A stretch of 54,509 nt of DNA, counting the filler, from Sphacelaria rigidula (taxonomy: Eukaryota): assembly GCA_964200075.2 (NCBI GenBank). It is 3 parts of 3 records of this genome, joined end to end, with 100 filler letters (N's around TTAATTAATTAA, not from the genome) between each part and the next. Parts side by side here need not be neighbours in the genome. Positions count along the whole stretch, not along the records: positions 36,410 to 54,509 come from CAXNAA020000918.1; 2 more parts are not named here. One strand, given 5' to 3'. Below are positions 28,901 through 43,556 of this stretch, piece after piece; the stretch's first letter is position 1; every line of letters begins with the position of its first letter. The notes under the pieces are model-generated. The model was not told where the DNA came from and made no database searches. It worked only from the letters and a program-made list of their open reading frames with translations. The position numbers were made by a program, and so were the translations under genes.

Positions 28901-31900
28901 TGAGCATGTTGCTTATATCTTGCATCGCATACAGATATTGCAGCGCCGCATGGTCCGTCACGTAAGTGAAATGTCTGCCCCATAAGAAAGGCCTCCAATG
29001 TTGGATTGCCAAAATAACGGCGTAACATCCCTTGAGGGGAGCAGAATAGTGCCTTCGGGCATGGTTGAAACGTTGACCGAAGTAAGCTATGATCGCTTGG
29101 TCATCGCCTTTCTGCTGCCATAGGTGGGCCTCCACTCATTGATTGCTGGTTTTGATTCGGACCACCAATTCTTGAGAGAAATCATGTAAGTCTAAAACTG
29201 GGGCAGTAGCCAAAAGTCGTTTCACTTCTGCGAAAGATTCGTCATGTTCTGCCTCCCAACGTTTTGCTACTTTTTTCACCGCTTCTTTCTCTGTGAGATC
29301 AACCAAGGGTGCAGTGACCTCGGTCCGGTTTGGGATGAGCTTTCTCACAAAATTGATCATGCCGAGCAATGAGCGCAACTGCTTGATGCTTGTCGGTTTC
29401 GAAAAGTTCAGTATTTCTTTTATACGGTCGTCGCCTATTTTTATACCGTCCGCTGACAGAGTGTGTCCTTGGTATTTAACTTCCTTTAGTCCAAACTGTA
29501 CTGTTGACGGTTTCAGGGTGAGACCTGCTGCTTGCAGCGCCTTGAACATGTCCTCAAATATAGTCAGGTGGCTTTCCCAAGAAGAACACGCGATTATTTC
29601 GTCCATGCACACCAGGAGGCCGCTATTCGGTCCAAAGTGGGAAAATGTAGAGCCATTATCCGTGTGAAAGTAAATGGGGAGGACGCTAATTCCAATAGGA
29701 GGCGATTAAATACCCAATTACCCTTTGCTCGTGACGGAGGTTGCTTCCTCCTTTTCTTCCTCCGCTATAGGGATTTGGTGGAATGCACTCTGCACGTCAA
29801 AGACCGAAACGTGTTTTGCTCCCGCCACTATGTCACCGTGAAATTCCACGTGAGGCATGGGCCATGACTTACGAAGCGGACTTTTGTGGAGTGTAGACCT
29901 ATATTCTACGCAAAATCGAGCCGTACCGTCGCTTTTAGCGACGATAGTCACCGCAGAGCCCCAAAGGCTAGCTCTTTGCTCAGTGATGCCGTCTCTTTTC
30001 ATTTCGTGTGCATACTTGTCGACGATTTCTTGTACTCTTGAGTTGGCCTGCATAGTCGTCTGTCGACTGGTTGTGTACCTGGTTGGAGTGGAAGTGTAGC
30101 TTCACCTATCGTGCAGCATTCCGACTCCTGTGGTGAAAGCGAAAAGACTGTCCTGCATTTAGTGCACAGATCGAAGACTTGGTCTCTCTTTTCTTGCGAA
30201 AATGTGGTGGTTGTGACAGCATTTTTGAACACCTTTCCCAACTCTTGACGGGTGTAGTAGCTTTTTGTTTGTTTTCGGCGACTTCACTGCTTGTGTTGGT
30301 CGTTTTTACTGCCAGGACTTCCGATGCAGGTGTAATGTATCCTAACACAGTGTTCCGCTCAACACAGACGTGCCTGCTGGATGGGTTGGCCACCTGAACC
30401 ATAGCTGCATTATTCACCGCGGACCATGTACAAACCGTTCGTGCCACGATCAAGCGGCTGAAAGCGCTGGTATATCCAACGATCGAACGTCCTGTTCTGC
30501 AACGATGCGCGGCTGAATCATCCCAGTGGTTGTCACTTCAGGAGGTTCATCAGACTCGACATGAAGGGCCACCTCTTTTGTGAAAGAACGACACACTTTT
30601 TTCCCGAGATATACTGGGGCAAGTCACTGGGGCAAGTTGCGCCGCAGTTTCTACTGACAACGGAACACATGTCATATCCTCCGCGTGTAGAGTTATTTTT
30701 CTCGTTCCGTCTATTGTGTGTAGCTTTGTTTTGACATCGAAATTTAAGAGCGATAATGTCTCAGCCTCCCAGTCTAAAATGCCTCCAAACGCTCCCATCA
30801 ATGCATTATCGATCAGCATGCGGTCTGGATCCAAATCACGCAAAACAAACGCTTCAACGGGCAAGTTTTTTCTCCCTAACGTGCAGTCGAACCGAACGAA
30901 GCCGACTACTTTGATGCGTGAATTGTCCGCGCTTCTAAGATCCAAAGATCCGCTTGGGACTGGTTTGATGCCCGCCGTCTTCAGAGTAGGGTGCGAATGC
31001 ATGGACTCCAGGCTGATGACAGGCAGGTCGGCTGCTGAATCTATAGCCATGGCCTCAACGGCGCTATCATTCACTCTCGCTGGTACTTGGACTCTTACTC
31101 AAGCTGGATGTATCGTTGCAGGTCTCCTTGGGTACCGTGCCAGGGACATGTGGAAAGCTTCGAACTCGTGAGAGTCAGGAGTCGGAAATTTCGATCGGTG
31201 TTTTGCATTGATACTACATGACGGTTGTGCCATGAAAGCTGCTTGCGGAGCACTCTCCAACTACGAAGGCTGGCTACAGGGCACCTCTTTTCGACTTGTG
31301 TTGCTCACTCTGAGCTTCTGCTTGACTTCAGCATGTACTTTCGCCGCCTCTTTGTGGGACTTCGCACTCGATCCCGTTGAAGGGGCTACTGCACTTCCGG
31401 AAAATTGCATGCTTTTCCCGATCTTTTCAACCAGAGGGCTTTCCCTCGGGTTATTACTACTAAAGGTCATGCGTGCTACCTGCTTCGTCTTGAACGTTGA
31501 CTGCTACGGTAGTTGCCCTTTTTGCTAAATGTACCTTACACTGCCCGGACGAGGGATCCCGTGCTGGGCACCTTCAACATCCAAGGGCGGTCGATTCCCC
31601 CCTCTGTCTCTTGGCTTGTTGGCAGTTTTCTATCGTATGAGTTTTTGTATACTCACACAAACGTTCACGAGCAAGACTGTTGAACTTCTTTACCCGTGGA
31701 GGGTCTCATCCTAACGGGGGTTTTGCTACTAGATCCTCCCCTGGGCTCAAACCGTACACGTTTCGCGCCATCTTTCGATCCAGCTGCTTGCCCTTGCAGC
31801 TCTGCCGAGGTTGATGTGCGTTTGTGCCGTCTGCCTCGTTCTGAACTGCGGTCTCTCTCCTCGAGGAGTTTGTCCAACTTTCCGTCCAGATCAGCCACGG

Positions 31901-34900
31901 TTTCCGCGAGCTGTGCAGTTGGGTTTTTTGCAACAGAGGAGATGTGGGGAGCGGAGATCAAGTTTTGAGGTACTGGATCGCGCAAGTTGTTTGTTTCGTG
32001 TTCCTTTGCTCTTGCTCGCGCTATCTGAAAACTGCGGGTGGGGTCTTTCTACTCCGATGTGGGGCGGTAAACCTGCTTCAAAAGCTTCTGTCTGACTAAC
32101 CTCTCGGGCGAAGCTGAACGGGTCTCCGCCTTTTGGTGTCACCCGGGAAGCTTCGGCATGGAAACGAGAGTGTGCCTTGGCTACCTCGAGTGCATACGCG
32201 TCGGCGGCTTGACCATCGTTGTACTTGAATTGAGCGATAGCTCTCGCTAGAATGGCTATACGGTTTGGGGGCGAGTACAGGTTGGTGTATGCGTCTACCC
32301 ACTCGTTCCAAGATGTTGGGGTTCAAGTCTGTACGTCTCTGCCTTGCGCTCGAAGCTGTTCGAGCTGTGCTTCTGTGTGCCATTCTAGTGTGCCACTTGC
32401 TAGATTGGAGTACGCGTCAAGGGCTGTCCCGCGGGGTAGTAGCTGGAGGTGCTTGGTGCATCTACGGTCGATTACCTCTGAACTGCACTGACCCTGAGAG
32501 TTAATTTGCACTCTTGATCTGTGCTCGCGCATGATGTATGGTATATCTTCTGTCGCAAATCCGTGTAAAGCCATGTTCGTACCTAGGTCAGACTGCTTTA
32601 GGTTGAATCGTGTCGCTTGCTCGGCATATATTTCCCCTCTTCTCGAATGAGTACCCCCCCCCCCTTCTCGAATGTACGAGTAGTAGACGGTCATTGGAGA
32701 CGTCTGTTCGGGTGTTTATCGGATTGTTCGTTTCTGGTTGGATCTCAGCATGTGGGCAGTTACTGCGAATGGCATACCTGGAGACTACCCGTTGGGGACT
32801 CTTCATCTTATCTACTGGAGGCGCAGTCGTGCTTCTCGTCTCGTTACTTAGACTAACTGGGGGTGTGCTGTTTACTGCACTGCCAACTCGCTGGCCGAAC
32901 GTTCAACCAGGCACTACCTCGTTACTCAGTGGTTACTCAGTTGGTTACTCGTACTACTCTGCGTCACCTATGCAACCTGACGGAGAGCGTCCTCCGATGG
33001 TGAGGTCAAACCTAACGCCGAAAGGACCCGCGCCGTGGGGTTAGACCCGTCCCGAGCGTGACTTTCGAGGATGTTTAGAGCGACCCGCAAACCCGCCGCC
33101 TTCGCCTCCTCGACGTTGGATACTGGGGAGTAGTAGCACTCGCCCTCCTGGTCTGACTCGCTGTCTTCATCGCTGTCGCCGCCTGGAGCCAAGCGGTGAA
33201 ACCTACTTCTGTCGCTGTTACTATCACTACCACCACCTCCAACTTCTGCTGCCCCTCTGTTTTCTCCTCTGTATCGGGCTGTTGGTTTGGTTGATTCCCG
33301 CCTTTTTTTCACCTTGATATTTTGCTCTGGTGGGGGGCGTAGCCCATGTCGCAGGGCTGGTGTCCTCCGCTTCAACGGCCATGACCGCCTCCGCGGGGTC
33401 GGAGTTCGATCCCGCTCGCCTGTCTTGGCGTCAGCTTTGGCGGATGTCGGCGTGACCGTTGGTGGCAAAGCGTTGCTGGTGTTCTTGGCCGGCATGTTTG
33501 TGGTGGTGCCGTCTAAAATAACTACTGCTCTTTTGCAAACTTGCGCTGAATCACCGTTTCGCGTGAGTTTGTTCCGGATGGTGTCGCCACCGTAAACTAG
33601 ACTTCGCTGGGGGCGAGGCAGTGGCGCTACGTGTCTTGATGGAGAATGTTGTCGTGCCCTGCTGCCCAAAGATCTCCAAAGCGAGGCGTAATTTTCTCCC
33701 TTGTTGTGTGGGTCGAAGATCTAGCCGTGAGCCGGTGGTGGGCAAAAAGAGTGACCGGGCTTGCGCTGAGGTACAGCAAACGGTCAACCAGGGCTCTTAC
33801 GGTGGCTCTTGTTGTACCATGCTCCTTCTACTAAGGACACTGTTGCCTAGTTTGCCAAAGCTCCTGCTACACAGGTTTGAACATTTTGCGTCCGGTCGTG
33901 TATGTCACTGGAGGACCCCGTTCCTGTGACTGTTTCTCCGGTTCACATGTGTACTCTGGTGTTCATTGCGCTCAATACAAATATGGTTTCCACATTTTTA
34001 CTTCTTTCCGCTTCTTTGCAAACATCCACTCCCTTGTCTTCTCGACCTTCGCTATGTACGCAGTCTCGGTGGTCGATAGAGTTAGGCGGTGTTGAGTACG
34101 ACTATAAATAGTGGCAGATCTCGGTGAACCCCCATACATGACCACCCTCCCCAAAACCTAATGTCAATATGTATCCTTCTTGCCGTAACCCCTAGTAGCA
34201 TTATCTGAAAGCACATCCTTTCAACGTGTAAAAGTAGTCACGTGCTAATCTAAAATGGCGCGCCATTGCTCGAACTGCGTTGTTGGCTACATCTGGTCAT
34301 GTCGCCCCTGTCAACGACATAGCACCTCGTACCGTATTACAGGATGGGCGGTCTACGATAGTGTAGTCACCCGTTGTCGGTCCTAAACTCTCCGCAGCAG
34401 TCGAGGTAGGCGTGTCAGAGTAACTCTTCACTCACGCCAAAATGCTTCAATAGGGTGTCGACCGAGAACGTGGTTTGCGCCATGAAACCCGTGGCCTTAT
34501 CCCCATCTCGATCTATTGCACAACATATGTACCAGTTGACTGCAAGATATTAGGTACTAAGACATACTGTTGTTTTTCATGAGGACCGCCAGGGGGTGAG
34601 CGCCTTGGCTGAGAACCCCTCTATTCTTGTCACGGCAAGCACATAGATGTGAGGTGGCGTCTTTCATTGGGGATTCGGTAAGAACGGAAGAGGTGAGACA
34701 TCGTGCATTGGATGTTCGTGTGTTGCAGTATGCTGGTGTCCTGACCAAACCTCTCCCTATGCTGCTACTTCAGGGGCATCGACGCGCCTTGATGAACTTG
34801 GGGGATGACAAGTCGACGCGTGTGATGTATGCAATGTTCTTTATATCTATATGTTGCATCTATCGTAGGTGTTTGAGATCATGTTTACGTGATACATTTG

Positions 34901-36309: not shown

Positions 36310-36409
36310 NNNNNNNNNNNNNNNNNNNNNNNNNNNNNNNNNNNNNNNNNNNNTTAATTAATTAANNNNNNNNNNNNNNNNNNNNNNNNNNNNNNNNNNN
36401 NNNNNNNNN
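36310..36409. other. Artificial contig-joining linker
   Basis: 44 N + TTAATTAATTAA (36354-36365) + 44 N. Confidence 0.97.
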
Positions 36410-37055
36410 TCTTTTTTTCTTCCCCCCCCCCCGCCCCCCCCCCCCCCCCCCCCCCCCCCGATGACCCGCTCCCTTTTGTGGACGAGTCTGAAGTCTCAAG
36501 GGATGAGCCCATGCCTACCCCAGTACATACGCTGCGATCGATAATATAGAACTGGACCAGCACTTCTACACCCTATCCACTTTCATTGACTTTCGCGTCG
36601 AACCTCACGCTTTCATGTTTTTCATGAAAACCAGTGAAGTAAACAATAAGTAGTAACCGTCGGGATCCGAACGCACTACTGCTACTCCGCCCAAGCTAGC
36701 CGATGATGCACAAGTTGGACCATCGGGGCGCGGCGGCTTCAAAACTATTCCCGAATTGTGCGGTCCGCGGAATGGAAATCACGATTCGAAGACTTACCGC
36801 GCACCGCAATACTGCGGGAAACGCACGATCGCGGGTGAAAATATATTCTTGAAAATTACGATCCACGTAAAGATTCTCCATTTACATGATGACATGTAAC
36901 ATTTACTGGCATCGCTCGCTCACTCCGGGAATTCCGGCATGGTATGCTCTTCGTTATTTCGTTCGGTGTCGACACAACGAACTAAACACACCGGTCGCTC
37001 CCCTTGTCATACCTTCTGGCGCGCAAACATACAATAACAACAACGGACAGACACA

Positions 37056-37895
37056 CTACCAGGCAACGCAACTACACGGCGGCCCATAATCATCATCTAG
37101 CAAACTGCCCGTAGCTCTTTCCCCCGACTCGGGTTCCTTTTCAGGCGGCAACGCAATCCCGAGTGTCGTCTTGTCCCTCAAAAACACGGCGGTCGCCGGC
37201 GCCAACGGCACGGTCTTGCCCCTCTTGCCGTCATCATCCAACATCCACCGCAATCGCCCCTTCGACTGCGCGTTCCTCAGCGCTCTCAAATTAGTCACCG
37301 CTCGCCTGACGAACGCCGCGGGGGGGCGAACATGATGACTCTCAACGTAGTGTGCAAACCCCTCGGGCCACACGTACACGCCATCAGTCAGCGTGCAACA
37401 TCCCATGGCGATGTTGTCCTCAACCACCACCGTCTCCATTTCTACTTCTCCCCGGCTGGTGCCGGCACATCCCGCAGGAATCGGCGTGACAACGTATCTC
37501 GGGCCAGATTCTCCGCAACCATCTCCAATCCGGCAAAACGAGTACCCCAGCTCGAAGGATTCAAGGTACCCGGATCGCAGGTACAGAGCGACCGCACGAG
37601 CCGTGACCGTCGCGCCCCACTCTTTGTCGACAAGCTGAGAGGGGTGAGGACGAGGATCCTGGGGGTCTCGTGGATCTGCCCAGAATCCTACGTCGATGAG
37701 GGAAAATGGCTCCCGTTGGTGGGGATCACGGTTGTTGTTGCTCTTGTGCCTTGTTTGTCGAGGAGAGAGCGAAGAAAAAAATACGGGGGTCGTGAAGAGG
37801 GACGGCGAACGGATTCTTGGGAACACGGAAAGGTCCTGTCGGCGGAGCGGTGTTTCGCTCTTGGTGTTCTCCTCCGTGACGAACGATGACGTCAT
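37056..37895 (-). CDS. Uncharacterised 279-aa protein, apparently intronless, with GFW..P.P..LVD..W..YLRSG..GYSFCR..LTDGVYVWPEGFAHYVESH motif
   Basis: Open from ATG 37895 to TAG 37056, globular-looking core. The LTDG.YVWPEG..HYV..H motif is recalled from bacterial hypothetical proteins (unverified). The first about 48 aa are less certain because of an acceptor-like tract near 37750. Confidence 0.75.
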   Translation of the reverse strand: MTSSFVTEENTKSETPLRRQDLSVFPRIRSPSLFTTPVFFSSLSPRQTRHKSNNNRDPHQREPFSLIDVGFWADPRDPQDPRPHPSQLVDKEWGATVTARAVALYLRSGYLESFELGYSFCRIGDGCGESGPRYVVTPIPAGCAGTSRGEVEMETVVVEDNIAMGCCTLTDGVYVWPEGFAHYVESHHVRPPAAFVRRAVTNLRALRNAQSKGRLRWMLDDDGKRGKTVPLAPATAVFLRDKTTLGIALPPEKEPESGERATGSLLDDDYGPPCSCVAW

Positions 37896-38219
37896 CTTGA
37901 CCGTGTGAAGGCCAAAACACACAGCACACAACAGCGGCGGGGTGATCGTTTTACGCTCCCTGATGGAAGTCGACGGTAACTACGGCGAAATGGGCCAGGG
38001 AAGAGGACAACGAGGAGGTTTACCACCCGGCGACGAGAACAACCCGTGTTGTATCCCCCGCGCGCGACGTCCTCCGTATGCCGTAGAGCAAAAATATGTT
38101 TGGTCTCTCGTCGGCTCCTCTGCAGATACGCGCACACGCGTCAAAGAACAAGGTCTGCGCCAATCAATCGCGGGGCAACTCACCAACCGCGGGACAATCA
38201 AATCTGCCCCACGCACCCC

Positions 38220-38504
38220 TCAGAGCCCCATCCGCGCGTGCCTCTTATCCTTCCGACGCTGAGCCGCCTCGCGCGCGCGAGCAGCCTTGGCTTCTTCGGA
38301 GTTGAAGTCTGCCTCGAACTCGTCGCCGCCGCCTTTGCCACCGGCGCTTCTTCTTCGATCGCCCCCCGAAGCGCCGCTGCCGAGGCGCTTCTTGCGCTCC
38401 AAATCCTCCAACCGTTTTTTCTCCTCGGCCTGTCTTTTCAGTGCCTCGTACTCTTGAACGTCGTCCGGGGTAAGCTCTACGAGGGTGGGTTTTCGGCGGA
38501 TCAT
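38220..38504 (-). CDS. CDC26: Anaphase-promoting complex subunit CDC26/APC12, 94 aa
   Basis: MIRRKPTLVELTPDDVQEYEALKRQ matches the CDC26 N-terminal signature MLRRKPTRLEL..DDIEEF; charged linker; C-terminal ARMGL resembles DRIGY. An acceptor (TTTCATTTTCAG, 38516-38517) 11 nt upstream of the ATG implies a 5'UTR intron. Confidence 0.92.
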   Translation of the reverse strand: MIRRKPTLVELTPDDVQEYEALKRQAEEKKRLEDLERKKRLGSGASGGDRRRSAGGKGGGDEFEADFNSEEAKAARAREAAQRRKDKRHARMGL

Positions 38505-40321
38505 AGTAAGTCTGCCTGAAAATGAAAAAAGTAAGTATCGCGGGGCGGACCGGGGCGGACCGGACCGGGTCAGGGTACACACGGGAAATTTCATGGTCCA
38601 AGATCATTTCAATATGCAGAAAACCCGCTTGATTCGCTTGATCGGGCACATGATCTCCATGCAGACAAAACAACCCCGTAGAACATGAAATTTCGAATAA
38701 ACAAGCTCCGAGGAACAATTTGCGGTATGTTGGAAGGTCAACGGAGACCTTGATTTCTGAGCGACTCGCTCCAACATAATCGGCCCGAAAAAATGCCACG
38801 CGACGATGGGAGAGGGCTCTGTGTGAGCTAATGGGGCTGTGAACAAAAAGGACGCTGAAGCCAGCAATGTTGTGTCGAGAGAGCTGTGGTAGAGGGTAGT
38901 CTAGGATCCACACCCTGGACAACAGATTACACCATCAAAAGGTGTACTGCATCCAGTATGGAATCTCTTGTATATTGCAATGGACGCAACAGTCGATACT
39001 GTACGCAGTACATTTTTCGACACATATCTCGCTCAGGGTATGCTAGGATCGGAGGCGAGCGGGCAGTGAGGAGGGCGATACCCACCCACACACGGAATAC
39101 GGTACCCTCCTGCCAGAACACATGATTAAACCCGCCACCCTCACGCTACGGTTGCCGGTAGTGATAGGGACAGAAATGCGCGCGCGGTATCCTTTCATGG
39201 CCTGTACAAGCATGGTTGCGAGGGAACAGCATCAAGACACGCTTCGAGTACTCTTTCTGGATGCTGCCTGTATGTACACCTGTACATACGAAGGATATCT
39301 TTAGTACTCCAGGGGTGACGAGTAGAACCATCAACATTCCAGCCAATTTCGGTTTCATTATACCCAAATGTTGCCGATAAGAAACTCTGGTGGCCAAGAA
39401 GCCAGCCGAGTGCGACGTACGCCATTTGGGAAGAGCTTGTTCGAGGTATATCCAATGGAAGGGATCCTCATAAAGCGCAAAACGGATGTATTGGGATTGC
39501 AGGATCTGGGTCTGCCATTCCGAGGCAGCATAGGATGAACTTGAAACTCGGCGCTTCATAACCCGTCGCCTACGGCACAGCTGATGACTTTATTTTTCTA
39601 TCGAGTAGGTCTGGCAAAAATGATCCATGTAACGACATAGCTTGAGGCTTGGTGCATGTGATGCCCTAGCTTAGCACCGAGAAGAGGGGCTCTCTCTCTA
39701 AACGGTGTACAGTAACGCCTGTGCGATTGCAGGAGCCGCTGTCGCTTGCAGCGATCGCTGTTCACGGTCGCCCAATTGATCGTACGATCGCCGGTCATGA
39801 CCAAGCCTCGAGTGTGATCGAAAATGGCGAAACTATGATTTGCCTCATGATACCAAAAACGGGCAAAGAAGATCAAAGATCGTTAGAAGACACGTAGCTT
39901 TTGCTCATCTCCAGACCCATGGTATCACGGAGAGCAACGAAGACACTCAATTCACATCATCACACTGAGCGGCTCTGTAACCCTTTGAGGTTCCCAGAAG
40001 TTGGGACGTGGCGTACAGGGTCTGTACGGGTACTGACGGCACTGACATTACGATGGCCTTCATCGAGGATCCAGGATATGGCCAGCCTGGCCGATCAGGG
40101 TACCGTTGAAGCGTCTACGAGCTGGGCCAGCAGTGAATTCCGCACTCACTTTCCACACCACAACTTCTCAAGTTTCCCAAATTCAGCGCGACTTGAGCAT
40201 ATCGCTGTGAGCTGCAGACCAACCTCGTACCGCACGGCACCGCCACTGAATGAATAAAAAAATCGAAAAACTAGTGTACTGCATAACACATGACCTTGAC
40301 GACAGACGAAACAAAAGAGAA

Positions 40322-40405
40322 TCTATTGGGATTCGAACTCATGACCTCCATAACTGGAGTCTCCTGTATCACTTGGATTGAAGGGGCGCGACCGTGTCAC
40401 ACGCG
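40322..40405 (-). repeat. tRNA-derived (SINE-like) fragment
   Basis: Minus strand GGAGGTCATGAGTTCGAATCCCA resembles a variable loop plus T-arm/B box; no convincing A box or cloverleaf. Confidence 0.35.
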
Positions 40406-40994
40406 AAGTGCGATGCGGCGTCCAATTTGAGGTATTTTTGACCGAAACGTTACCATGATGTCCTGGACGCGGGTGCCCACAACAATGTTTGGAGTGCAGC
40501 CGATTTTATCCATTTTTCACGGAGGTATCGCGTTTTCGCTGTTTTGCTCCAACTTCAACTCGCTCCAACTTCTTTTTTTTTTCCTTCTTTTCCTCTGCAC
40601 CCCCAATAGGGTTGCGCGTGTTGATGATAAAAAATGTTGTGTCAAAATTTCAGCGCCCAACTCTTCGAATTACCAATCGCATCGCCATTTTTGATTCAAA
40701 AATCCTTGTCAGCTGGCCCAGCTCGTACGGAGACGGGGAGTTTTTGTGAGGCGATTTTCCTCGTACGATCTTTCAAAACAACGAACCACGTTTCCGCGAT
40801 ATGTTGCCGGCATTCAGCACAATCCCAACGACGAAAGTTCAACATATGCCCACATCAATACTGGTTGCCGGCCATGTACTGGGATCATTTTGCTTTGGAT
40901 GATGCTCCTGTCGATCACAACCGCGTCCTGGCTATCTATCGTGACTGGCAAGAGCGGTGTATCTTTTCCGTACGCCCCGCACCCCAAGATAAGA

Positions 40995-40997
<3 letters not shown>

Positions 40998-41027
<30 letters not shown>
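40998..41027. repeat. (GA)n microsatellite
   Basis: About 15 AG units. Confidence 0.95.
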
Positions 41028-41031
<4 letters not shown>

Positions 41032-42457
41032 GATACAAAAGCGCGAGCAGCCGAACCCAACTACACGGTGTTCTCTCTAGTACGGCCTCATGTGACCGTT
41101 ACCCAATTCGTCTCTAGGTGTATACCGAGCACTCCCAGCTGACGGCATACATGTGCATCAGCGTTGTTACTCCTGACAAGGATATAATCGTACTGCCTGT
41201 GCTAGTCGTACCCTACATATTTAGTGCCTTTTTGCAGCTCCGCTACTGCATTGCGCAGCAACAACCCGAGGAGCACATAGCCTCGGCGACAAGCCAAAAC
41301 ATTGAAATGGTGTTGAGCGCTCCACGGTAAGTCAAGTTTGAGCTACACGCGATATGAAGATGGCTGGATTTAGTGAGATATTCTCAGAGCGACCTGTACC
41401 CATAATTTTGGAGCAGAAGTAAACGGTGCAGCCTGGTGCAGATGATCGAGTAGTACGACTGAACACGCCTTTGCTGACGGGTGTGAACCACAATTGTGTA
41501 ACCTTTTTCTGTGCTGCGGTCAATGTCCTATGCCGTGGAGAGAGGACGCCTCTCTCATGCAATCATTCCAATACAGCATCTATACATATTCGAAAATCGC
41601 TCAAGAGAAAGGAAACCGCGCAAAACGCTCATGACACACCGAAAAATACAGATGACGAGGTATCCGTCAAATCTACATGATCGTAAGGGAGCCATTTACT
41701 TGTAATCAGAGTGACCACAGACGGACCTCTCGTGCCACCACAGGGTTCAAGCAAAGGTCTGTAACGTACGCCCAACACTATATTTGCCCAGTATCTCGGC
41801 GCAGCAGCTGGTTTGTGGTGCATGACCTTGTCCGCACTTTTTACAGCTTAGACGAGAGCACTATAATAGAGATTGGGCAACAGTGCAATGCAAACAGTAG
41901 TTTGACGTGTGGGGTGGGCCGGTGGCTGATACAAGACAGTACAGCCCAACGCTCGTGCTGTACGTCGACTGACTTGCACGTGATTGACTGACATATCTTC
42001 TCGCTCTTTTCACAACCAATCCAAGACACCTCGACAGAAGCGAAAAAGTCACCCAACCGTCCACGGCGTGCAGTGGATACCTTCCACCAACGGAGACATG
42101 CCAACAAGGGCGGAACAACTCCAGTCACATCGTTATTTTCCTCAAGTAGCATGTTCCATAAAACGATCATTTCTCCTTCATAAAAGTTTATATCCGACGT
42201 GGTGGCAAAGAGATGTGAGGCATTTTGCGCTGAAAGGGTTGACCCCTTGAGCGCCTATTCGAATTGTTCCGAGTATCCAGTACAAAATATAAGCTTTTCC
42301 TTCTTATGCTTTCATATGATTCGTGTAGGTTATGCGTTCTTGTTTTTGGTCTTGCACACTGAACTCATGTAATTGTAACGCCTCGGTGGGGTTTCCGCTT
42401 TGAAATGATCCCCTCATGAACAAGACGCGTAAGAAGCAAGAGCCTAACAGAAGGCTG

Positions 42458-42566
42458 TTAACCCCTAGACCGCCATGCGGGTAGTCAATCTGGATCGAAC
42501 ATACTTTTTCCAAGTGAAATTGATGCCGATTCAGCAAGTGACGAACCCTCGCGGTCAAAGGATTAA
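42458..42566 (+). mobile_element. piggyBac-like mini-MITE, copy 3
   Basis: TTAA|CCCCTAGACCGC...GCGGTCAAAGGA|TTAA; interior aligns with 18701-18806. Confidence 0.75.
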
Positions 42567-43556
42567 AGCACACAAGGAGAAGTACTGTCGCAAAGTAATC
42601 GCCACCTGTCTCCTCTTGGTCGCCAAAATAAGTGCACCCCCCCAAAAAAAGCAGAAGGCCCAATCGTGCTCCTCGCTGGACAGCGATCGCGGTGGAAGAG
42701 TACTGTCTGTAACAGACAACAGAGAGAGAGAGCGAAACTACTGATCCGAAACGAGGCCTCGGGCAGTACATACAAAGAGCGATCCAGGAGATATTGACGG
42801 AGTGATTGGATTGTGAACGCGTCAACACCCCGACAGGAAAACACTGAGCGACAGGCACTAAGTCGCTTTACGGGTTCGGTGCTATTGGAAGCCTGTTTTC
42901 CAGTCCATGGGTAACTCTTCATCCGCAAGTACATTCATACTTCAGCCATCGCGCAGAAGACACCGTGGAGGCAGCGCCTCAACACTCACTTGGGGGTCAA
43001 GTTGCTCAGTACAGTGTAGTACCGAACCGTACAACAGTACTGAACGTTTTATGTCGTGTACATCACTGAAATCCGATGAAGTATCCATTCTTTGTAGACT
43101 TGTCTCAAGCACAACATTAAAACTGACCTTCCACCTCACTCAGTGTAGAGCAAGCACCTCATGCACAGCACACACCTTAGCCAGCAGCACACCGGTCTGG
43201 ACTTTGGTTTCCTTGCCGCAGTGAAACACGTACATTTCACGTCATTATAAAATTCATCCGCAGGAGATTATGCCGTTTTCCAAAATAGATATACCTGATC
43301 TCCGGGGGGTGTCGCCGGCGCACACCGCCCCTCTAGTTCATTCGTGTCGCCCTCAGCGTGTGTAGCACCGTAGATTTTTATCGATTGACCCTAACTCTGT
43401 TGGATGGGTTGCCCACCCAAAGTTGCATGCTGTAGCACAGGCATCGCAAGCCACGGTTGCGTCGTGTGACTACTGCACAGCCTACGGAACTACTATACAA
43501 CAGCTGTCTTCGCAAATCGAAGCGCGCGAATCTTGGTGCTGTGCCTGTGGGGCAAA

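Follow-up and report, generated by a model that had tools for sequence, protein, structure and literature searches.

In land plants and green algae the gene for CDC26, a small subunit of the APC/C, forms a bicistronic locus with TTM3 (Lorenzo-Orts et al. 2019, as described in PMC11892635 and PMC6973038), and the bicistronic genes of green algae are translated by leaky scanning, according to Duenas et al. 2025 (PMC11892635). The locus described here lies on the minus strand of a 54,509-nucleotide stretch of DNA, filler included, from the brown alga Sphacelaria rigidula (the window). It resembles the plant locus in that CDC26 is a small 5′ ORF (ORF1) followed on its strand by a longer ORF of unrelated function (ORF2). 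It differs in the partner, which is not TTM3 and has no CYTH/TTM domain, but is a DUF7919-like protein with a putative CaaX-type tail. A literature search found no report of a mature nuclear bicistronic mRNA for brown algae or other stramenopiles.

Results

Organization of the locus

The coordinates of the features are collected in Table 1. The sequence bears out the initial annotation of this DNA on the same-strand distance of 324 nt between the CDC26 stop (38220) and the ORF2 ATG (37895), on the lack of any ATG in the spacer (none counted in 38219-37896), on the single internal ATG of CDC26 (just one in any frame, at 38231, codon 92 of 94), and on the presence of a consensus donor motif, TTG/GTGAGT, with its G at 38183. 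The two start codons are 609 nt apart (3 x 203), which places CDC26 and ORF2 in one common frame, and this frame is closed within the spacer by a TAG at 37982-37980. The GC content of the spacer, 0.56-0.59, is exon-like. Both starts have A at -3 (CTTACT-ATG-AT for CDC26 and GTCAAG-ATG-AC for ORF2); a Kozak consensus for brown algae was not evident from the titles and abstracts of the Ectocarpus papers listed. The leader, as measured on contigs, has at least 83 nt (72 + 11), and in the spliced model of exon 1 and exon 2 the stop of the mini-uORF is found 19 nt upstream of the CDC26 ATG. No Pfam family was detected at E <= 0.01 (0 of 9) in the plus-strand antisense ORFs (37101-37889 and 37980-38519) or in seven neighbouring ORFs.

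Table 1. Features of the CDC26-ORF2 locus, in positions of the window.
Feature	Position	Strand	Remarks
ORF1, CDC26 (small APC/C subunit)	38220..38504	(-)	94 aa; ATG 38504, TGA 38222-38220
ORF2, DUF7919-like protein	37056..37895	(-)	279 aa; ATG 37895, stop 37058-37056
Inter-ORF spacer	37896..38219	(-)	324 nt, 0 ATG
Sole further ATG between both starts	38229..38231	(-)	in-frame Met92, C at -3; would yield a 3-residue peptide
Donor-like TTG/GTGAGT, G at 38183	38178..38186	(-)	read in the sequence; unused in contigs
5′ exon, non-coding leader	43128..43199	(-)	ends of RNA-like contigs; 43199 reached by the longest RNA contig (X1) alone
Mini-uORF in the leader, 8 codons	43136..43162	(-)	ATG with T at -3; scripted on the exon 1 + exon 2 model
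5′UTR intron, 4612 nt, GT..AG	38516..43127	(-)	donor AAG/GTCAGT, acceptor TTTTCAG/GCAG; high-copy repeats inside
Long last exon: CDC26, spacer, ORF2 and at least 536 nt of 3′UTR	36520..38515	(-)	colinear RNA-like contigs
C-terminal CaaX-type box C-V-A-W of ORF2	37059..37070	(-)	second Cys precedes (CxC)

ATG depletion between the CDC26 and ORF2 starts exceeds chance. The spacer has no ATG against a mean of 3.8 in dinucleotide-preserving shuffles, 0.4% of 3000 of which had none (P = 0.004), and the 606 nt between both starts contain one against a mean of 5.0, with one or none in 1.6% of shuffles (P = 0.016). On the minus strand of the window just 8 of 869 ATG-to-ATG gaps reach 324 nt or more, and stretches of 606 nt with at most one ATG make up 0.2% of all, every one of them at the CDC26-ORF2 locus. 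The depletion may be partly regional or compositional, since the 5′ part of ORF2 is also ATG-poor, the ATG-free stretch covering its first 373 nt. A codon shuffle on CDC26 alone gave no significant deficit of out-of-frame ATG (0 against 1.5 expected, P = 0.12). IRES-like structure in the spacer was considered and rejected, its minimum free energy being nothing unusual (-116.1 against a shuffle mean of -118.8 kcal/mol, z = +0.52).

RNA-like contigs

The locus is covered by contigs from three RNA-like runs of a single study (X1, X2 and X3) and from a DNA-like run (X6). The label 'RNA?' on X1-X4 is a guess, none of these runs being on record as RNA. X1-X3 behave as RNA, since their depth in the intron is near zero (0 at 38524-38857 and 0-1.5 at 39025-40026) where X6 has 62-70; repeats aside, RNA-like cover of the 5′UTR intron is nil or trace. 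In each of the three runs one contig (2148 nt in X1, 2066 nt in X2 and 1936 nt in X3, with depths of 387-448) spans CDC26, the spacer, ORF2 and the 3′UTR, and is colinear with the genome on 36520/36610-38517, with no gaps and no other letters. The X1 and X2 contigs extend 80 and 47 nt past 36520, into a poly-G run and an assembly gap. At 38517 the contigs have loose ends of 70 (X1), 21 (X2) and 28 nt (X3), whose sequence has a unique match in the window at 43130-43150 (no matches in 100 shuffles), 30 of 30 letters fitting 43130-43159. In X1-X3, a splice at 38516/38515 joins the long exon to the 5′ exon at 43128-43199 over the 4612-nt GT..AG intron; the X6 contig crosses 38517 colinearly, on to 38938. 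The mini-uORF is covered by one of the three RNA-like contigs (X1).

Within 37896-38219 no splice junction is listed in the four runs examined, and the three RNA-like runs have no loose end or contig break in the spacer. An intron starting at the donor at 38183, as the initial annotation had suggested, finds no junction in the contigs of the four runs; because contigs drop rare forms, this speaks for the dominant form, in which the donor is unused. A contig over two ORFs is not by itself proof of single molecules, and transcripts that start or end inside the spacer and overlap by at least 31 nt would build an identical contig.

The two proteins

ORF1 matches the CDC26 family PF10471 of Pfam with 38.2 bits (cutoff 24.5, E 2.6e-9, residues 1-45), its residues 1-38 align with residues 1-39 of human CDC26 chains (4ui9_W and others, E 1.3e-4), and its neighbours in the atlas are CDC26 clusters. 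The N-terminal M-[LI]-R-R-K-P-T, the part seen in APC/C structures, is invariant in an alignment of four CDC26 sequences, and a C-terminal R-[IM]-G-[LY] motif is also conserved and is kept by free-standing CDC26 ORFs. An internal Met is absent from 10 of 11 CDC26 sequences. Not one of the 11 brown-algal CDC26 matches comes from an annotated proteome, whereas at least eight ORF2 homologs do, which is the pattern expected from one-CDS-per-transcript annotation.

The ORF2 protein is conserved in brown algae, and its sequence predicts a DUF7919-like core and a CaaX-type tail. Its homologs number 40 at E <= 1e-3, 34 of them brown-algal and forming the closest group, and a wider search recovered 1273 representatives at E <= 1e-3. 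A Pfam scan at E <= 1 found no CYTH/TTM domain; the sole match was DUF7919 (PF25535), with 25.3 bits, just below the cutoff of 27. Bacterial relatives score 23.6-26 bits against the same family, precomputed PF25535.2 is assigned to 16 of the 34 brown-algal homologs, and the ORF2 homologs are all DUF7919-like. The putative core would comprise residues 65-230 approximately, with AlphaFold pLDDT of 86-97 and a disordered N-terminus. Foldseek against PDB gave a best E of 4.7, a wide VIA-align search a best Z of 2.6 (Z >= 5 in none of 48161 chains), and no NCBIfam family was found for the protein. At the other end of the sequence, a Cys at -4 is present in 30 of the 34 brown-algal homologs, and CxC in 22; the four homologs lacking that Cys are one partial model and three with other ends. 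The final W of C-V-A-W is unusual, the majority of homologs ending in S.

Among the best 80 of 368 metagenome relatives, all with at most 40% identity and bacterial-like, there was no brown-algal contig. Three long metagenome loci of bacterial relatives, drawn from the same best 80 of 368, have mutually unrelated neighbours. These neighbours are an RNA ligase, a NUDIX protein, DUF6348 and an ABC transporter.

Linkage in other brown algae

The linkage of CDC26 and ORF2 is conserved among several brown-algal lineages. For 8 of 11 brown-algal CDC26 ORFs, the longest contig is equal in nucleotides to that of an ORF2 homolog (2573, 3661, 13636, 13358, 6788, 2309, 6803 and 8080 nt). Gene models of Nemacystus decipiens and Cladosiphon okamuranus fuse the N-terminus of CDC26 to an ORF2 homolog, with the order kept, and the linked or fused cases belong to at least four separate clades of the ORF2 tree. 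The three unpaired CDC26 contigs have 565, 5545 and 1579 nt, the shortest of them being too short for both genes. Order and strand are read directly in the window and in the two fused models, and the other linkage consists of equal contig sizes.

Discussion

Our results are best explained by a conserved bicistronic mRNA in which ORF2 is reached by scanning past CDC26, a reading that we consider about 60% probable. Within the reach of our tools, the proposal of the initial annotation that a bicistronic mRNA has CDC26 as its upstream ORF is supported by RNA-like contigs that bridge both ORFs and carry a spliced 5′ leader. Its description of the partner as unrelated agrees with a conserved ORF2 devoid of a CYTH/TTM domain, and its suggestion of an origin independent from the plant locus is backed, again as far as our tools reach, by that unrelated partner and by the recurring brown-algal linkage.

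A single transcription unit, with its start near 43200, would give rise to one mature mRNA composed of a short 5′ exon with the mini-uORF and a long last exon with both ORFs, after removal of the 4.6-kb 5′UTR intron, and we infer that this mRNA is the source of both proteins. Ribosomal subunits initiating at the CDC26 AUG would produce CDC26, and those passing it would scan around 610 nt that are nearly AUG-free and start at the ORF2 AUG (CAAG-AUG, with A at -3). Passage could result from leaky scanning over the CDC26 AUG or, for subunits that have translated the mini-uORF and terminated 19 nt upstream, from their not yet being ready to restart. As there is no exon junction 3′ of the CDC26 stop, termination at that codon should not trigger junction-dependent mRNA decay. 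ORF2 output would, in this manner, be tied to the output of an APC/C subunit. Counting against this reading are the A at -3 of the CDC26 AUG, whose context is not obviously weak, a spacer longer than is typical of green-algal bicistrons, the extension of the ATG-poor zone into ORF2, the cover of the mini-uORF by one RNA-like contig of three, and the origin of all the RNA-like evidence in one study.

The same contigs could have been generated by two abutting or overlapping transcription units, with the CDC26 mRNA ending in or after the spacer and ORF2 transcribed from its own promoter within the spacer or the CDC26 3′UTR, in which case the RNA contig would be an assembly merge of overlapping transcripts or of minor read-through. 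A contig over two genes shows, indeed, no single transcript, a compact promoter could fit in 324 nt, and the CDC26 AUG does not stand in an evidently weak context. However, separate units would not readily account for a spacer that is ATG-free beyond chance, with exon-like GC, and that has no loose end or contig break in three RNA-like runs. Neither would they fit well with same-order linkage across distant brown algae, with gene predictors that merge both genes, or with the lack of a separately annotated CDC26 in all 11 matches, and we regard this explanation as rather unlikely. Another possibility is that one bicistronic mRNA exists and that ORF2 is translated by reinitiation after full translation of CDC26, and not by bypass of its AUG. 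Subunits crossing the 324-nt ATG-free spacer would have time to acquire a new initiator tRNA, a purine stands at -3 of the CDC26 AUG, and the green-algal study appears to have left reinitiation not fully excluded (PMC11892635). Yet the efficiency of reinitiation drops with uORF length and is best at few codons, according to work cited in PMC11892635, and CDC26 has 94 codons; furthermore, the scarcity of ATG inside ORF1 and the Met-free interior of 10 of 11 relatives are needed only if subunits scan through ORF1. Reinitiation as the main route to ORF2 therefore seems quite improbable to us.

The common frame of the two ORFs, with starts 609 nt apart, and the two annotated models that are fusions (Nemacystus and Cladosiphon) also bring to mind a CDC26-ORF2 fusion protein, made by splicing out the CDC26 stop or by stop-codon readthrough. 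Two in-frame stops intervene, however (TGA 38222-38220 and TAG 37982-37980), and the RNA contigs have no junction there. In addition, CDC26 is truncated in the merged models ahead of its R-[IM]-G-[LY] motif, as though a gene predictor had been forced to join the two, and a fusion product must be considered very improbable indeed.

A broader interpretation could be that brown algae independently evolved a CDC26-led bicistron and have kept it since their early radiation, with an ORF2 that would be a bacterial-type DUF7919 protein with a CaaX-type tail. We propose this tentatively, and hold it to be slightly short of an even chance. In that case, expression of this very small APC/C subunit would repeatedly have worked best from the first position in a two-gene message, possibly because the mRNA is protected or recruited through translation of a second ORF downstream. 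The mini-uORF would apportion ribosomes between CDC26 and the ORF2 protein, and stramenopiles would have their first described natural nuclear bicistron. If confirmed, CDC26 would head bicistronic messages in two very distant eukaryotic lineages with unrelated second genes, a convergence that would point to something in the way CDC26 itself is expressed rather than to a functional tie with the partner, and mature nuclear bicistronic mRNAs would extend to brown algae. The lack of CDC26 matches from annotated proteomes (0 of 11), together with the two fused models, suggests that CDC26 is probably missed or mis-modelled across brown-algal genomes. The locus would also offer a starting point for understanding a conserved DUF7919 protein that has a predicted CaaX-type tail.

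Leaders that work by delayed reinitiation include those of yeast GCN4 and mammalian ATF4. As in these, a very short uORF ends here at a short distance (19 nt) from the next AUG, which resuming subunits could skip. In contrast to them, the skipped ORF would encode functional CDC26 and would not be an inhibitory uORF, and the mini-uORF of the brown-algal leader is covered by one of three RNA-like contigs. In comparison with the values given for green-algal bicistronic genes in PMC11892635, ORF1 measures 285 nt against medians of 291-357 nt, the 5′UTR has at least 83 nt against a median of 83 nt for C. reinhardtii bicistronic genes, the observed/expected ratio of AUG before ORF2 is 0.2, below medians of ~0.49, and the two ORFs lie 324 nt apart, further than in the green-algal genes (medians of 40 and 183 nt). 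ORF order is kept between species in the green-algal bicistrons, from what that study reports, as it is at the brown-algal locus. Unlike those genes as described there, the brown-algal leader bears a mini-uORF and a 4.6-kb intron and the ORF1 AUG has A at -3. For CDC26-TTM3, the available accounts describe single-molecule mRNA and translation of both ORFs in plants, whereas the present locus is known from contigs. As in CDC26-TTM3, linkage is kept across a whole lineage. With a stramenopile as host, the simplest reading is an independent origin: the brown-algal arrangement appears to have arisen independently of the CDC26-TTM3 bicistron of plants and green algae.

Results

Sequencing runs were compared over 36520-41500, using a large DNA-like run, X6, and three small runs, X1, X2 and X3 (four small runs from one study, X1-X4, are guessed to be RNA, none being recorded as such). 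One contig in each of X1-X3 (2148, 2066 and 1936 nt; word depth 387-448) is colinear with the window from 36520 or 36610 to 38517, with no gaps and no differing letters, and then goes on with 70, 21 and 28 letters, respectively, that do not fit the stretch there. These extra letters match the window once, from 43130 onward, across a GT..AG intron of 4612 nt with donor AAG/GTCAGT at 43128/43127 and acceptor TTTTCAG/G at 38516/38515 (minus strand; two letters common to both ends were placed canonically). The X6 contig passes the acceptor unbroken, to 38938. X1-X3 show a depth of 0 over 38524-38857 and of no more than 1.5 over 39025-40026, against 62-70 in X6 over both intervals. Given the splice and the near-zero intron depth, X1-X3 behave as spliced RNA, and the canonical splice assigns the transcript to the minus strand. 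Very high-copy repeats occupy 38858-39024 and 40027-40694 within this 5'UTR intron (summed word depth 37,000-89,000 in the DNA-like run, against ~62 for unique sequence); their many loose ends and short junctions mark them as dispersed repeat families.

Features of the CDC26-ORF2 locus
Feature	Position	Strand	Content or basis
Exon 1	43128 to at least 43199, 5' end open	minus	X1-X3 contig extensions
Mini-uORF, 8 codons	43136-43162, ATG 43162	minus	exon 1; T at -3; X1 contig only
Exon 2	38515 to at least ~36440	minus	11-nt leader, CDC26, spacer, ORF2, at least 536 nt of 3'UTR
CDC26 ORF (ORF1), 94 codons	ATG 38504, TGA 38222-38220	minus	Pfam PF10471
Partner ORF (ORF2), 279 codons	ATG 37895, end 37056	minus	40 homologs at E <= 1e-3

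In the spliced model the mini-uORF stops 19 nt upstream of the CDC26 ATG, and no intron lies 3' of the CDC26 stop. A TATAAT motif is found at 43249-43244, ~45 nt upstream of where the furthest-reaching RNA contig stops. At the other extremity the contigs run out in poly-G sequence adjoining an assembly gap; at 36330-36470 the 3'UTR enters this long tract, followed by two N gaps flanking the TTAATTAATTAA spacer of an assembly join, so the transcript's actual 3' end is not readable from the window.

The ORF1 product begins M-I-R-R-K-P-T and matches CDC26 in Pfam at 38.2 bits (gathering score 24.5); human CDC26 chains from solved APC/C structures align with residues 1-38 (E 1.3e-4), and the closest Atlas clusters, which serve as leads only, are CDC26 families (scores 0.85-0.86). 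The initial annotation had described a CDC26 ORF with a single internal ATG near its end, followed by 324 nt free of ATG, and both descriptions hold. The sole further ATG of CDC26 in any frame is in-frame codon 92 (38231), and the ORF2 ATG is the first after the CDC26 stop. Among 11 CDC26 sequences, 10 lack any internal Met. Across 3000 dinucleotide-preserving shuffles the spacer would carry 3.8 ATGs on average, and only 0.4% of shuffles had none; over the 606 nt from start to start, one ATG is observed against 5.0 expected (at most one in 1.6% of shuffles), a depletion beyond chance. On the minus strand of the window, 8 of 869 ATG-to-ATG gaps reach 324 nt, and 606-nt windows with at most one ATG are confined to this locus. 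Counting against a spacer-specific depletion, ORF2 is likewise ATG-free over its first 373 nt, and codon shuffling of CDC26 alone gave no significant deficit (0 out-of-frame ATGs against 1.5 expected, P = 0.12). By contrast, 13 of the 14 ATGs in ORF2 fall within its last 467 nt, the other being the start codon, and ATG density in the 3'UTR is 24 per kb. GC content of the spacer is exon-like (0.56-0.59; flanks ~0.50), and its RNA is predicted to fold no more strongly than shuffles (z = +0.52). ORF1 and ORF2 are in frame with each other, their starts 609 nt apart, with the CDC26 TGA and a TAG at 37982-37980 between them. The proposed spacer intron fared less well: the donor-like TTG/GTGAGT is present at 38183 (minus strand), and no junction within the spacer is listed in X1, X2, X3 or X6, so that splicing there is not the dominant form.

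The closest 34 ORF2 homologs are brown-algal or brown-alga-like, with named matches in Ectocarpus, Ascophyllum, Undaria, Scytosiphon, Hapterophycus, Discosporangium, Nemacystus and Cladosiphon; those beyond are distant, some with fused ankyrin repeats. A public contig encodes the window ORF2 minus one Asp codon in the D-D-D run close to the C-terminus (278 against 279 aa), an allele or strain difference. Invariant Cys, His, Trp, Pro, Glu and Gly positions mark the core (~residues 65-230), which AlphaFold models at pLDDT 86-97, with both ends of the protein disordered; no clear match to the fold was found in the PDB. ORF2 scores 25.3 bits with DUF7919, for which the cutoff is slightly higher (27), and has 1273 representatives at E <= 1e-3. 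Metagenomes yielded 368 relatives, the best 80 of them all at 40% identity or less. The nearest relatives outside brown algae (P0035-P0040 and metagenome loci L001-L080) are bacterial-like DUF7919 proteins, and no other eukaryotic group appears among the named matches, so that the brown-algal lineage may have acquired the gene by an old transfer from bacteria. The loci of three bacterial relatives have no common neighbour theme. A CaaX-type box (C-V-A-W at 37059-37070 in the window, minus strand) is conserved in the family, usually as C-S-C-x-x-S: Cys stands at -4 from the C-terminus in 30 of the 34 brown-algal homologs, 22 of those having CxC. ORF2 is thus a likely candidate for a prenylated, membrane-anchored protein, and its family is possibly palmitoylated as well.

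Elsewhere, successive long ORFs at 29700-33700 (minus strand) encode basic, low-complexity products and may be the remains of a mobile element; four scanned ORFs had no Pfam match at E <= 0.01.

Gene models of Nemacystus decipiens (284 aa) and Cladosiphon okamuranus (321 aa) consist of a CDC26 N-terminus and then an ORF2 homolog, the latter model translating 29 spacer codons before the partner's own Met. Since both stop CDC26 short of the C-terminal motif retained by free-standing CDC26 ORFs, we take them for two neighbouring same-strand ORFs forcibly joined by a gene predictor. Of 11 CDC26 ORFs from a profile search, eight have a longest contig identical in size to that of an ORF2 homolog (2573, 3661, 13636, 13358, 6788, 2309, 6803 and 8080 nt, two of these being just 2309 and 2573 nt); the other three (565, 5545 and 1579 nt) have no such match. 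On the ORF2 tree, linkage or fusion occurs in at least four separate clades (the window's own, one related to Ascophyllum, one related to Ectocarpus, and that of Cladosiphon/Nemacystus), the remaining homologs being without linkage data. On this indirect evidence the adjacency appears to be conserved. None of 11 CDC26 matches came from annotated proteomes, and ORF2 is annotated in at least eight species, as expected if a bicistron is annotated with one CDS per transcript.

Discussion

The contigs through both ORFs, the spliced 5' exon and the linkage support the CDC26-led bicistronic mRNA that had been proposed from the window, here read as a conserved one, to which we assign a probability of about 0.6. 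The main rival, two overlapping transcription units, draws on the fact that a contig spanning both ORFs is no proof of their lying on one molecule, and X1-X3 come from one study; we consider it rather unlikely. On the bicistronic reading, a single mRNA would supply both proteins: 40S subunits passing over the CDC26 AUG without initiating would scan 610 nt, almost AUG-free, before initiating at the ORF2 AUG (A at -3). A second, speculative route, resting on one contig, is suggested by the mini-uORF, whose end lies 19 nt upstream of the CDC26 AUG: subunits resuming after it could bypass CDC26 and start at ORF2. With no exon junction downstream, the mRNA should escape junction-dependent decay after CDC26 termination.

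Literature found on CDC26 bicistrons concerned plants, green algae or unrelated topics; of the papers listed for bicistronic or polycistronic mRNA in brown algae none was relevant, none of those listed for stramenopiles mentioned CDC26, and no paper combined CDC26 with Ectocarpus. For bicistronic or polycistronic mRNA in other stramenopiles the literature found was organellar or engineering work only, and a prior mention is possible, supplements and subscription journals lying largely outside the search.

Green-algal leaky-scanning bicistrons have first ORFs with medians of 291-357 nt, an AUG observed/expected ratio of ~0.49 before ORF2 and, in C. reinhardtii, a median 5'UTR of 83 nt, and the features of our locus would fit this class, although its 324-nt spacer is longer than the median inter-ORF distances in that class (40 and 183 nt; PMC11892635). 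At -3 the CDC26 AUG carries a purine, and no brown-algal consensus against which to grade this context was found. The nearest known case, the CDC26-TTM3 bicistron found in land plants and green algae, shares the CDC26-first layout (PMC11892635, PMC6973038). Since the partner here is not TTM3 and the host is a stramenopile, we would file the locus as an independent variant of that bicistron with an unrelated partner, as first suggested, rather than as a member of it.
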